Source: Deinococcales bacterium
GTDB taxonomy: Bacteria; Deinococcota; Deinococci; Deinococcales; Deinococcaceae
NCBI GenBank assembly: GCA_025359705.1
Contig: JANYFS010000611.1
Span: 1-28,864, forward strand
DNA length: 28,864 nt
Direction of reading: 5' to 3'
The notes beneath the pieces were generated by a model that was not told the DNA's origin, did not search any database, and saw nothing but the letters and a program-made list of their open reading frames with translations. Shown in pieces: positions 15,970-22,620 of this stretch (position 1 is its first letter; each line of letters starts with the position of its first letter). A program made the position numbers and the translations under genes.

Positions 15970-16097
15970 TAGAGCGTTTGTCAGAGTAGTGAGCGGATGA
16001 ATTATCCTGCTCGGAAAATTATTTATCTGTCTGATACACGATATTTATGATTGTTTCTTAACGAAAAACGGATAACGAATAACGGACAACTGCTCTA
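15970..16097 (+). repeat. MITE-like dispersed repeat copy (128 bp)
   Basis: Ends TAGAGCGTTTGTC ... GACAACTGCTCTA; colinear with the 22500-22620 copy (83/121 identical by manual alignment, plus one extra AACGAAT heptamer). Confidence 0.85.
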
Positions 16098-16150
16098 GGG
16101 TGTTCATTTAGCGAGATAAAAAACCAATCCCCGCCTGATCCTAACCCAAA

Positions 16151-16585
16151 ATGACCCAAAACCAGATCATCTACCAAATCAATCCACCCGTGGGAAATAC
16201 TGCACTCAATGCTCTTTTTGCTAGTGCTTGGCAGGGGCATCTGTTCAGGGATTTTCAACCTTCCCTCGAGCGGTGTTTGGCCCACATCGTAGCCTTTGAT
16301 GTATCTGGTGATGATGTATCTGGTGATCGCTCGAGGCTGGTCGGTTTCGTCAAGCTGGCGTGGGACGGTGGGGTTCATGCTTTTTTGCTGGATACCACCG
16401 TGGATGCAGCTTATCAGCGCCGTGGAATTGGGCGTGAGTTGGTGACAAGGGCGGCGCACTATGCCAAGCAACAGGGTTGCACATGGCTGCATGTGGATTT
16501 TGAACCCGCCCTCGAGGGGTTTTATGCGGGGTGTGGTTTTGTCAGCACTCGAGCGGGCCTGATTTCTTTGATTGCTTTGGGATGA
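16151..16585 (+). CDS. GNAT-family N-acetyltransferase
   Basis: LVGFVKLAWDGGVHAFLLDTTV, acetyl-CoA motif YQRRGIGRELV, FYAGCGF. Confidence 0.9.
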   Translation: MTQNQIIYQINPPVGNTALNALFASAWQGHLFRDFQPSLERCLAHIVAFDVSGDDVSGDRSRLVGFVKLAWDGGVHAFLLDTTVDAAYQRRGIGRELVTRAAHYAKQQGCTWLHVDFEPALEGFYAGCGFVSTRAGLISLIALG

Positions 16586-20679: not shown

Positions 20680-22476
20680 ATGGCATTTAAAGATATTCAC
20701 AGTTTTGTGGCGCTGCTCGAGCAACGGGGGCAGTTGCTGCGGGTCTTGGAACCGGTCAGTCGCACCCTCGAGATCACTGAAATTGCAGACCGATTGGTCA
20801 AAAAAGACGGCCCAGCGGTGCTATTCGAGAACGTGGTGGGTAGTCCCTTCCCCGTTGCCATTGGCCTGATGGGAACGAGGGAGCGTATGGCTTGGGCGCT
20901 GGGACTCGAGGATTTGGATCAGCTTGCCGAAAAAGTGCGGGATTTGATCAAAATTAAAATGGACGGCGGCATTGTGGGCATGGCCTCCAACCTGAGCAAG
21001 TTGGGTGCAGTGCGACATTTGCCACCCAAACGGGTCAAAACTGCGCCCGTGCAAGAAGTCGTCTGGCGCGGCGACGAAGTGGATTTGTCCAAAATTCCTG
21101 TGCTGCACTGCTGGCCCCAAGATGGCGGCCCTTTTGTGACCCTGCCTTTGGTGATCACCCGTGATCCCGAAACTTTTGAATACAACATGGGGATGTACCG
21201 CGTTCAGGTGCTGTCCAAAAACACTACGGGAATGCACTGGCAGCGCCACAAAACTGGAACCCGCCACCTCGAGAAAGCCAAAAAACTGGGCCAAAAGCTC
21301 GAGGTAGCGGTTGCCATTGGCGGCGATCCTGCGCTGATTTACGCAGCAACCGCGCCGCTGCCGCCCATTCCAGGGATTAGTGAATATTCGCTGACGGGGT
21401 ATTTGCGCGGCGAACGCCAACCGATCATCAAAGGGATCACAGTGGATCTCGAGGTACCTGCCAACGCCGAATTTATCCTCGAGGGCTATGTTGATCCGCT
21501 CGAGGACTGGATCGATGAGGGGCCATTTGGCGATCACACCGGTTTTTATACCCCAATCGACAAATACCCCCGCTTTCATGTCACCGCCGTGACCATGCGC
21601 CGCAACCCGATTTATGCCGCCACCATTGTGGGCCGCCCGCCAATGGAAGATGCCTACCTGATCGAAGCCTCCGAGCGCCTGTTTTTGCCCGCCGCCCAGT
21701 TGATTTTGCCCGAAATCAGCGATTATGCCATGCCGCCCGCTGGAGTGGCCCACAATTTGGTGGTGGTTGCCATCAAAAAACTTTATCCAGGACATGCCTA
21801 CAAGGTCGCCAATGGCCTGTTTGGTTTAGGGCAAATGATGTTTGCCAAGGTGATTGTGGTGGTGGACGAAGGTACACCCGTGACCGACTTTGCCAAAGTG
21901 TGGCTCGAGGTAGCGACCAAAGCAGGCTTGCAGGACATTTTGCACTCGAGAGGCCCAATTGATGTACTGGATCACTCGAGCCGAAAATGGAGTTACGGCG
22001 GCAAGCTGATCATCGACGCGACAACCAAAATGCCCGAAGAGCTGGGGCGGCAACCCTCGAGTGAAGCGGTATTTTCCCAAGAAATTCCTCCGCTCGAGCA
22101 TCAAGAACTCAAAATCCACACCTTTGGAAGTTATTTGCATGTGGCTTTGCGTAAAACCAAGGCGCTCGAGGGCAGGGAATTGGGGATGGTTTTGGCTAGA
22201 CTCGAGCGGAACAAAGCAATTCAACACATTTTAATTTGCGATCACCTGACCGATGTCACCGATCTAAACGATGTCTGGTGGACGGTTTTAAACAATATTG
22301 ACCCCGAACGTGATGTGTTTTTTGAAAACGGTAAAGTGATCTGGGATGCCAGCCGAAAAATCCCCGCCGAAGGTTTTGACCGCGTATGGCCCGACAAAAT
22401 TGTGATGTCTGAAGATGTGAGGGCTAGGGTGGATGCGATGTGGCATATTTACCGCTTGCCTGAGTCCTATAGATGA
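20680..22476 (+). CDS. mqnL: UbiD-family decarboxylase, menaquinone (futalosine-pathway) type
   Basis: EITEIADR..GPAVLFENV, CWPQDGGPFVT, NMGMYRVQ, EGPFGDHTGFY, GRPPMED, GLFGLGQMMFAK. Confidence 0.85.
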   Translation: MAFKDIHSFVALLEQRGQLLRVLEPVSRTLEITEIADRLVKKDGPAVLFENVVGSPFPVAIGLMGTRERMAWALGLEDLDQLAEKVRDLIKIKMDGGIVGMASNLSKLGAVRHLPPKRVKTAPVQEVVWRGDEVDLSKIPVLHCWPQDGGPFVTLPLVITRDPETFEYNMGMYRVQVLSKNTTGMHWQRHKTGTRHLEKAKKLGQKLEVAVAIGGDPALIYAATAPLPPIPGISEYSLTGYLRGERQPIIKGITVDLEVPANAEFILEGYVDPLEDWIDEGPFGDHTGFYTPIDKYPRFHVTAVTMRRNPIYAATIVGRPPMEDAYLIEASERLFLPAAQLILPEISDYAMPPAGVAHNLVVVAIKKLYPGHAYKVANGLFGLGQMMFAKVIVVVDEGTPVTDFAKVWLEVATKAGLQDILHSRGPIDVLDHSSRKWSYGGKLIIDATTKMPEELGRQPSSEAVFSQEIPPLEHQELKIHTFGSYLHVALRKTKALEGRELGMVLARLERNKAIQHILICDHLTDVTDLNDVWWTVLNNIDPERDVFFENGKVIWDASRKIPAEGFDRVWPDKIVMSEDVRARVDAMWHIYRLPESYR

Positions 22477-22499
22477 TCCCATAGATGATGACTTCCTTA

Positions 22500-22620
22500 T
22501 AGAGCAGTTGTCCGTTATCCGTTTTCCGTTTCGAGTAGGGTGAAAATACCGTTTCTCAGATGAAGAAATTATTTTTTGAATGGGGTAGTTTCACTGTCTA
22601 TTACTCTGAGACATGCTCTA
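22500..22620 (-). repeat. MITE-like dispersed repeat copy (121 bp, inverted)
   Basis: Minus strand reads TAGAGCATGTCTCAGAGTA ... AACGGAA-AACGGAT-AACGGAC-AACTGCTCTA; the last 17 nt are identical to those of the 15970 copy. Confidence 0.85.

Follow-up and report, generated by a model that had tools for sequence, protein, structure and literature searches.

The window analysed here comprises 28,864 nt of one contig from a Deinococcaceae-like MAG and carries five short, related repeats, all of them intergenic by our own gene calls. The first (1..98, + strand) has its left end cut by the contig start and aligns over 8-88 with positions 31-111 of the family profile described below (nhmmer E 9.5e-7). 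Its right terminus (~87-98) is degenerate, and its final TTA (96-98) doubles as the TAA stop of a phosphoesterase-family gene on the - strand (96-995; own gene call and Pfam match). The second copy (15970..16097, +; 128 nt, full length) lies close to the family consensus and matches model positions 1-127 over 15971-16096 with an E of 2.7e-33. It begins 26 nt beyond the stop of an intact TnpB gene (14679-15944; OrfB_IS605 and Cas12f1-like TNB domains) and ends 54 nt 5' of the start of a GNAT gene, with edges reading ...CTTAT/TAGAGC...GCTCTA/GGG. The left terminal inverted repeat (TIR) of this copy is TAGAGCGTTTGTC (15970..15982, +), whose outer TA corresponds to the duplicated target; the right TIR is GACAACTGCTCTA (16085..16097, +) and is abutted by a tract of AACGRAN heptamer units (16057..16084, +).

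The remaining three copies differ in their state of preservation. Copy 3 (18782..18955, +) is the most decayed, being longer through internal insertions and having termini that are degenerate yet recognisable; the profile covers 18823-18929 as model positions 18-111 with a 14-nt insertion (E 8e-8), and its alignment scores reach z = 5.8-8.7 against shuffles. Copy 4 (19628..19756, +) is full length (nhmmer 19630-19755, E 1.3e-22) with a degenerate left TIR (GAGAATATTTGCC). Copy 5 (22500..22620, - strand; 121 nt) is likewise full length (nhmmer 22619-22501, E 2.1e-25), has one heptamer unit fewer than the model, and has its right end 24 nt 3' of the stop of a UbiD-family gene (20680-22476). Copies 3 and 4 occupy equivalent places beside paralogous genes. 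The five copies may thus not all be independent insertions, since these two may have been duplicated together with the paralogous genes; their flanks barely align and their mutual likeness is no greater than that of random family pairs.

These stretches are interpreted as members of a real family of small, decayed, non-autonomous MITEs with IS630-type ends, a reading to which we assign a probability of about 90%. A profile HMM was seeded with the copy at 15970-16097 and grown by iterated nhmmer over the whole genome. At E<1e-5 it finds 107 copies in the 3.47-Mb assembly, dispersed over its 637 contigs at ~31 per Mb, and 47 of these are complete from end to end. Run on the window, the profile recovers exactly the five places that a sequence-only reading had claimed as one family (E 2.7e-33 to 9.5e-7), and nothing else below E=1. 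Such likeness could in principle arise by chance among intergenic spacers that are AT-rich in this region (31-38% GC), and, considered singly, copies 1 and 3 are weak matches within the window (E 1e-6 and 8e-8). This explanation is refuted by the genome-wide matches, the best of which reaches E 3e-35, by the sharp boundaries of the aligned copies, and by pairwise global alignments of the four complete window copies that score 5.8-12.2 sd above shuffled controls (copies 2 and 5 share 92 identical positions in 131 columns); its probability is next to nil.

The element is ~129 nt long (113-143 nt among the 47 end-to-end copies), contains no transposase gene, and is bounded by 13-nt TIRs, TAGAGCATTTGTC and GACAACTGCTCTA. 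The imperfect TIRs beginning and ending in TA that had been proposed from the well-preserved ends are borne out by the consensus, in which 12 of 13 positions are complementary; of the 46-47 copies scored, 37-46 are paired at each of 12 of the first 13 positions. When 57 copies are aligned together with their 40-nt flanks, the information content falls to zero immediately beyond T/TA...TA/A (slashes mark the element edges), and for this reason the boundaries originally drawn for copies 2 and 5 prove exact to the base. The element starts with T in 44/47 copies and has A as its second base in 43/47; T is the penultimate base in 45/47 and A the final one in 47/47, and the outer flank is T at the left in 39/47 and A at the right in 37/47. 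Conservation is 0.88 in the left TIR and 0.94 in the right, the best-conserved part of the family, versus a flat interior of 0.64-0.76. The motif at offset +61, earlier singled out as a core, does not stand out against this background, its value of 0.76 falling within the range of the interior. Preceding the right TIR is the (AACGGAT)n tract, which is as variable as had been described, with 0-4 units among the 47 full copies and up to 7 in another copy. Unit number varies between samples as well as between copies: one run-X2 contig is another 7 nt shorter at 22507, within copy 5. Changes in tract length of this kind would come about by replication slippage. Identity of the copies to the consensus is ~80%, from which it follows that the family is old, and it is probably no longer mobile in this genome.

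Because TA is palindromic, duplicated target bases can be told from TIR bases only through empty sites. Three pairs of filled and empty sites with their flanks place the insertion at TTAA with duplication of TA. In the clearest case the filled contig (C80) and its counterpart without the element (C42) are 96-98% identical on either side; the open reading frame of C42 ends in ATT TAA followed by CCCAG, and the equivalent in C80 reads GTT TAG...CTA ACCCAG. The comparisons of C339 with C90, and of C213 with C170 and C157, give the same picture, so that the empty sites in C42, C90, C170 and C157, all contigs of the same assembly, are TTAA. One of these pairs looks allelic and the others are paralogous repeats. 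A further candidate, C144 versus C4, was rejected because the match is confined to the left flank, itself another repeat. No clean excision joint or empty allele was found in the contigs of four public runs at the four window copies lying within 14600-23600, a search limited by the loss of rare variants from assembled contigs. In a relative represented by run X5, copy 4 and the following spacer (19627-19800) are replaced by 180 other letters.

The ends of the element connect it to a particular group of insertion sequences. The family TIR is identical in 14/14 positions to the ends of 990-bp IS630-family ISs in related genomes. Complete ISs of this kind contain two overlapping ORFs (134-143 and 216-218 aa) between TAGAGCATTTGTCA-type ends, as read in the four loci that are readable in transposase orientation. 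Full-length IS630-family ISs with the same TIRs were found in relatives; in the present genome the group is represented by two remnants of a DDE_3 transposase C-terminus (C571:4622-4813 and ~C165:1282-1425), each followed by the same end, TAGAGCATTTGTCAGAGTAATA. Over 21-26 nt the left end of the element is the same as the transposase-distal end in both remnants; the interior of the element, like the remainder of its right end, has no relationship to the IS sequences examined. Among 364 genomes of the phylum, 75 contain relatives of the remnant, and 8 of 11 such loci read end exactly in TGACAAATGCTCTA. No intact cognate transposase gene was found in the assembly, which at 637 contigs and 91% completeness could simply have left an intact copy unassembled. 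The DDE_3 genes of C66 and C90 were considered as partner ISs and set aside, having no matching TIR; the IS630-family element of C66 is complete and lacks the family TIR.

The position of copy 2, beginning 26 nt after an intact TnpB stop, raises the alternative of an IS200/IS605-TnpB derivative, either a PATE-like palindrome-associated element or a sequence related to omega-RNA. IS200/IS605 elements typically have subterminal hairpins and generate no target duplication. The family instead has TIRs, TA flanks and ends that are those of IS630-family ISs, and a copy lies within 300 nt of just one of three TnpB-like loci, the one in the window. A TnpB origin is accordingly highly improbable. The earlier classification as an old, abundant, non-autonomous MITE of IS630/Tc1-mariner type agrees with the 14/14 TIR match, the TA flanks and the TTAA empty sites. 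The element would have derived from an IS630-family IS and would formerly have been moved in trans by it, the transposase recognising the 13-14-nt TIRs, excising the element and inserting it at TA with duplication, preferably within TTAA.

Placement of the copies relative to genes is strongly biased, with the statistics resting throughout on gene calls from a crude, unvalidated codon-usage caller made for this analysis. These calls place 104 of the 107 copies in sequence between genes. Among the 90 copies with two called neighbours, 43 are in convergent, 43 in tandem and 4 in divergent spacers, versus an availability of TTAA of 494:1535:550 in the same order (chi-square p 4e-12); gene 3' ends are favoured, and divergent spacers are seldom occupied. 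In 30 of these 90 cases a neighbouring gene takes its TAG stop from the element (10.7% expected, p 7.5e-9), and just one gene terminates within an element in a different frame. Comparisons with two same-genus genomes (G001 and G002) indicate that the proteins end at or close to where their orthologues do: both orthologues of the C595 gene end at the same residue, the C326 gene ends at the same position as its G001 orthologue and one residue after that of G002, and the end of the C97 gene is matched to within 3 residues. The search gave no usable orthologue for the C485 gene. Insertion into the TA of a TAA stop would convert it to a TAG stop at the same codon, because the element begins TA/G. 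Such insertions would be cheap for the host, and on account of this low cost copies may have accumulated at gene 3' ends and become rare between divergent genes, selection in this case being the likely cause of the bias. The family is an ordinary kind of element, notable mainly for the approximately one third of its copies that sit exactly on stop codons.

Orientation adds a further asymmetry. Of 62 right ends 22 adjoin a stop codon, compared with 11 of 73 left ends (Fisher p 0.009), and copies in tandem contexts are split 28:12 (p 0.017); neutral survivorship alone does not predict an orientation bias. A speculative and unlikely proposal is that something beyond mere survivorship is at work, either an IS630-group transposase tuned to T-TAA stops in a preferred orientation or the recruitment of stop-fused copies as 3'-UTR modules. 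Were recruitment true, the AACGGAT tract would belong to a heptamer signal used throughout the genome, given ~106 further AACGnAn arrays near gene ends.

More generally, the copies or their stop-codon subset could be domesticated, that is, a host signal kept by selection and not by tolerance alone, acting, for example, as an RNA module of the 3' UTR through which transcripts are stabilised or terminated, or offering the heptamer tract to a binding protein. Besides the orientation bias, domestication might account for the three-fold excess at stop codons, which persists within convergent (19/43 versus 22%) and tandem (11/43 versus 11%) spacers, for copies that are still recognisable despite their age, and for the AACGnAn-type heptamer arrays that do not belong to the family, found at 106 places and as a rule ~18 nt from the neighbouring gene. 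Against it, the interior is flat with no protected core, and RNAalifold gives no consensus structure in either orientation (0 kcal/mol, no pairs). The complementarity between positions 10-16 and 61-67 that had hinted at folding is real in the consensus, where 6 of 7 pairs form, but shows no covariation (73.3% of cells paired versus 73.3% when shuffled), and neither this helix nor a second consensus helix pairs better than shuffled columns. A scan of the window returned no Rfam match, no window copy has a terminator-like site, promoter-like sites in the scanned region do not exceed shuffles, and no RNA runs containing the sequence are listed. Nothing points to long-term retention, since BLASTN detects no full copy in the other phylum genomes searched, not even in the two that share the genus. 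The suggestion of a domesticated structured RNA or DNA signal is therefore not supported, and domestication as a whole is quite improbable.

Searches by BLASTN of 363 other genomes of the phylum and of 40 relatives returned no full copy, the two same-genus genomes included. In public genome contigs, 21-mers combining TIR and subterminal bases gave two chance matches (a Bacteroidota MAG and a Thorarchaeota MAG), and in public metagenome contigs they gave none; a 20-mer from the right end occurs in one metagenome contig that is without the element by nhmmer. The exact proteins of two flanking genes returned nothing on record.

By analogy the family is similar to the RUP (repeat unit of pneumococcus) of Streptococcus pneumoniae, which is thought to be mobilised by IS630-Spn1, resembles a resident IS630-family IS in its TIRs and inserts at TA (PMC2229807, PMC3049150). 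Both are non-coding, ~107-130 nt long, present at ~100 copies per genome, equipped with IS630-like TIRs and inserted at TA. They are unrelated in sequence and host phylum, and unlike RUP the present family prefers TTAA, has a third of its copies on stops, contains an internal heptamer microsatellite and has a partner IS seen in this genome solely as remnants. Further counterparts are the Deinococcaceae 990-bp IS630 ISs, TA-flanked and identical over the terminal 14 nt, from which the MITE differs in lacking a transposase gene. Stop-codon placement has a precedent in BOX of S. pneumoniae, a small interspersed repeat that often overlaps the extreme 3' end of a gene and encodes its stop codon (36 CDSs; PMC3049150); BOX is modular (boxA/B/C), has a weak IS link, and does not supply stops through a TA-target rule. 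Correia elements (NEMIS) of Neisseria are also TA-targeting intergenic MITEs with TIRs, ~100-155 nt long (PMC2229807). Their transcripts fold into RNase III substrates and they carry IHF sites and promoters, whereas no such fold or signal was found here. The SNRs of D. radiodurans (295 copies of at least 9 types, with none in D. geothermalis; PMC1978522) are abundant short intergenic repeats from the same bacterial family; they are described as mosaic-type, and the present family, which gave no full BLASTN match in the 363 other genomes, may differ from them. Literature searches on TTAA or stop-codon MITEs, and on CTCGAG as an iterated palindrome, found nothing relevant.

The family opens no new kind of biology. 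Its profile, boundaries and target rule define a repeat that can be used in the annotation of an uncultured Deinococcus relative of unusually low GC (51%), and it explains some of the short-read contig breaks of this organism in public runs. It also ties a MITE to one particular IS630 group, present in 75 of the 364 phylum genomes searched, and is a clean natural example of a TA-targeting element with G after TA that can occupy TAA stops and leave the proteins unaltered, useful for thinking about where MITEs persist. As to the host, the heptamers and an iterated palindrome suggested a cyanobacterium, a possibility rejected because no phycobilisome families were found in the genome and DdrB genes are present. 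The kinship with Deinococcus guessed from the letters alone is upheld by its three DdrB genes; among 14 control genomes, DdrB occurs only in D. radiodurans.

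The sequence-only reading had described a family of repeats with five copies in the window, at 1-98 (+), 15970-16097 (+), 18782-18955 (+), 19628-19756 (+) and 22500-22620 (-), here called copies 1 to 5. The host assembly comprises 3.47 Mb in 637 contigs (51% GC, 91% complete), the window being the entire contig C619. A profile seeded with the best copy, 15970-16097, was iterated with nhmmer over the whole genome (cut-off E<1e-5) and returned 60, 99, 104 and finally 107 matches, with scores down to E 3e-35. With every filter disabled, the family profile found the five places of the window at 2.7e-33, 2.1e-25, 1.3e-22, 8e-8 and 1e-6, and no sixth copy below E=1. 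In pairwise global alignments the four complete window copies scored 5.8-12.2 sd over shuffled controls, a comparison that the sequence-only reading had itself proposed. By both measures the family is real and its coordinates are right. Alignment of 57 copies together with 40-nt flanks gives an information content of zero in the flanks, an abrupt rise at T/TAGAGC on the left and an abrupt drop past GCTCTA/A on the right. The consensus is 129 nt long, with 15970-16097 as a near-consensus example, and copies measure 113-143 nt. The terminal inverted repeats (TIRs) are the terminal 13 nt, TAGAGCATTTGTC and GACAACTGCTCTA, matching at 12 of 13 positions. An AACGGAT-like heptamer tract precedes the right TIR, with 0-4 units in 47 end-to-end copies and 7 in one copy beyond that set; in one contig assembled from a public run the tract of copy 5 is 7 nt shorter, so heptamer number differs between samples too. 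Mean identity is 80% between copy and consensus and 69% between copies, and the family is old.

Among the 47 end-to-end copies the first two bases are T and A in 44/47 and 43/47, and the last two in 45/47 and 47/47; just outside, T stands to the left in 39/47 and A to the right in 37/47. Such bases are expected if the element inserts at TTAA, in its central TA, and duplicates that dinucleotide. Empty sites were sought by fusing both flanks of each copy via one TA and searching the genome, and sites of the kind that the sequence-only reading had suggested seeking in related strains were found within the host itself. Contigs C42 and C80 are 96-98% identical on either side of a copy that C42 lacks; the open reading frame in C42 ends ATT TAA followed by CCCAG, and C80 reads GTT TAG, the element, then CTA ACCCAG. 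The unoccupied site is also TTAA in two paralogous repeat pairs, C339 versus C90 and C213 versus C170 and C157. A further candidate pair, C144 and C4, was discarded because just one flank matched. With TA edges in 43-47 of 47 copies and TTAA in the empty sites, the description as a TA-flanked TIR element holds. Contigs of four runs over 14600-23600 show breaks at copies and one heptamer indel, and no excision at the window copies. In run X5, from a related strain (contigs ~90-95% identical), 19627-19800 (copy 4 and the following spacer) is swapped for 180 letters that gave no alignment at 88% identity.

A parent element was sought through TIR-like motifs lying outside the family in the host genome. 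Contigs C571 and C165 both carry the end TAGAGCATTTGTCAGAGTAATA and, next after it on the opposite strand, a DDE_3 (IS630-family) transposase C-terminus that includes the motif ...YSPDFNPIEILFSKLKAY...; both loci are remnants. A 64-residue piece of this transposase has relatives in 75/364 genomes of the phylum at 39-60% identity. Loci of these relatives, from different genomes, carry the exact TGACAAATGCTCTA end in 8 of the 11 read, with the transposase stop TGA within the repeat, and four loci readable in transposase orientation are complete 990-bp elements in which the two ORFs overlap and both ends are of the TAGAGCATTTGTCA type. Because these ends are shared, the family TIR is that of an IS630 group which this bacterial family commonly carries, and the left end of the element is the transposase-distal end of that group's insertion sequence (IS). 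Two clear DDE_3 genes exist in the host, one in a two-ORF element on C66 and one on C90; since neither bears matching ends, both were rejected as the partner IS. The proposed derivation from IS630/Tc1-mariner elements is upheld by a TIR shared with IS630 ISs; in the 91%-complete assembly, remnants of a transposase with that TIR were found and no full-length copy. The family shows every testable defining feature of an IS630-type MITE, its nearest described analogue being RUP of S. pneumoniae with IS630-Spn1 (PMC2229807, PMC3049150). Small repeats already described from this bacterial family are the SNRs of D. radiodurans (PMC1978522); BLASTN over 40 relatives and 363 other genomes of the phylum gave no full match to the host MITE. 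The family is well supported and tidy, and this kind of element is already known. Short elements at C176:83-242, C243:4479-4569, C276:1090-1383 and C299:5050-5233 have the same IS630-type TIRs and unrelated interiors, some with a common GGGTCAGGCAGC...CCCTACGAATGAT core, and probably belong to sister MITE families within the same IS group; on C298 one main-family copy is nested inside such an element.

The host, recovered from metagenomes of sediment and rock, is Deinococcaceae-like. Its genome contains no phycobilisome families and has three DdrB genes (C202:1014-1406, C624:1693-2085, C182:1998-2408), a family present among 14 control genomes only in Deinococcus radiodurans. The phylum as sampled holds 364 species, with 111 in one genus. 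BLASTN found no full copy in 40 relatives or 363 other genomes of the phylum, one hit of 35 nt being confined to the heptamer tract. Exact 20-21-mers of either element end gave only chance matches in species-representative and metagenome collections. Two same-genus genomes, G001 and G002, are distant (62-83% protein identity) and are without the family.

A domesticated structured RNA or DNA signal had been offered as the alternative, with complementarity between positions 10-16 and 61-67 as a hint of conserved folding. The complementarity is indeed present in the consensus, but it does not covary: 73.3% of cells are paired versus 73.3% after column shuffling, and 597/1000 shuffles reach the observed value. 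A second consensus helix likewise shows no excess over column shuffles, and RNAalifold predicts zero consensus pairs for 47 full copies in either orientation. TIR pairing is slightly in excess (79.5% vs 78.4% shuffled), with matched changes in both TIRs in some copies (TAGCGC...GCGCTA). Conservation of the 'core' that the sequence-only reading placed at offset +61, 0.76, lies within that of a flat interior (0.64-0.76); the TIRs score 0.88 and 0.94, values inflated by ascertainment because the scored copies were picked for intact ends. Rfam gave no match, the window copies contain no terminator-like sites, and promoter-like matches are no more numerous than in shuffles. For these combined reasons the structured-RNA reading is rejected on present evidence.

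A simple codon-usage scorer yielded 3,046 gene calls (82% coding, sensible in the window), and 104/107 copies of the MITE lie outside them. The 90 copies with two called neighbors comprise 43 convergent, 43 tandem and 4 divergent, a split differing from that of available TTAA sites (494:1535:550; chi-square p 4e-12). At 33 gene ends, involving 30 copies, the stop codon is TAG, its first two bases being the terminal TA and its third the element's first G; a single gene terminates within a copy in a different frame. Copies on stop codons amount to 33% versus 10.7% expected from TTAA availability (p 7.5e-9), an excess that persists within convergent and within tandem spacers. Window copy 1 is of this type: its degenerate terminus has the stop of gene 96-995 as its last bases. 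Same-genus orthologues speak for insertion at the native stop. Those of the C595 gene finish on an identical residue; the C326 gene has a G001 orthologue with the same end position and a G002 orthologue one residue shorter at that end; and for the C97 gene the ends agree to within three residues. The change from TAA to TAG is directly visible in the C42/C80 pair. A TA-targeting element with G after the TA could occupy a TAA stop and leave the protein unaltered, and at a stop codon it would sit away from promoters; survivorship is the likeliest cause of the placement bias. BOX repeats of S. pneumoniae, which encode the stop codon of 36 genes (PMC3049150), are a precedent for such placement. Survivorship leaves an orientation bias unexplained: the right (heptamer) end abuts a stop codon at 22/62 scored ends versus 11/73 for the left (p 0.009), and orientation in tandem contexts is split 28:12 (p 0.017). 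Apart from this bias and the heptamer arrays found across the genome, nothing points beyond a plain MITE.

Copy 2 starts 26 nt past the stop of an intact TnpB gene (14679-15944 region, 14679-15969 including flank; OrfB_IS605 and a Cas12f1-like TNB domain), so the flank expected after the right end of the TnpB IS is now MITE sequence. The adjacency looks coincidental, since of three TnpB-like loci in the genome no other has a nearby copy. A short hairpin, ACGGTT TT AACCGT (~15935-15950), has the TnpB stop codon in its loop. Copies 3 and 4 occupy matching positions downstream of two tandem paralogues (19006-19530 and 19865-20488, both -) of 50% identity, which encode small proteins rich in Gly and Ala that match nothing in Pfam; the flanks barely align, and the two copies resemble each other no more than random family pairs do. 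Copies 3 and 4 may have been duplicated together with the genes. A possible third, degraded paralogue unit lies at ~18674-18721. Tandem duplications of 12 nt near gene ends, at window 18562, 22468, 22647 and 22723, differ in presence between metagenome runs, the ATAGATGATCCC duplication past 22468 occurring in runs X5 and X6; TRF reports 417 period-12 arrays genome-wide.

Period-7 tandem arrays number 115 genome-wide, of which 106 are not part of the MITE family (for example C140:5277-5325, C293:1854-1944 and C472:4334-4415), and in the window they occur within MITE copies only. Their units are nearly all of AACGnAn type (AACGAAT, AAAAACG, AACGGAT, AACAACG), and the MITE tract looks like one instance of a genome-wide heptamer habit. 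Many arrays are preceded by GGCTCGAGG and a T-run; for the arrays at large, the next gene is a median of 18 nt away. Another multi-copy sequence of at least 60 nt (C144:5104-5163, C470:75-134, C86:6018-6077, C613:2610-2669, C4:1218-1278) ends in a hairpin-like CAGATTTAGA...TCTAAATCTG followed by GGGAGGTACT/TA and probably marks one end of some other mobile element; on C144 a MITE copy directly abuts it. CTCGAG is a highly iterated palindrome in this genome, with 24,539 occurrences in 3.47 Mb versus 847 expected (29-fold), the window included. Other 6-bp palindromes, such as GGATCC, CCCGGG, CTGCAG and GTCGAC, are strongly depleted genome-wide (26-58 occurrences), and there is a single instance of GCGATCGC. 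A same-genus genome likewise shows CTCGAG in its intergenic DNA.
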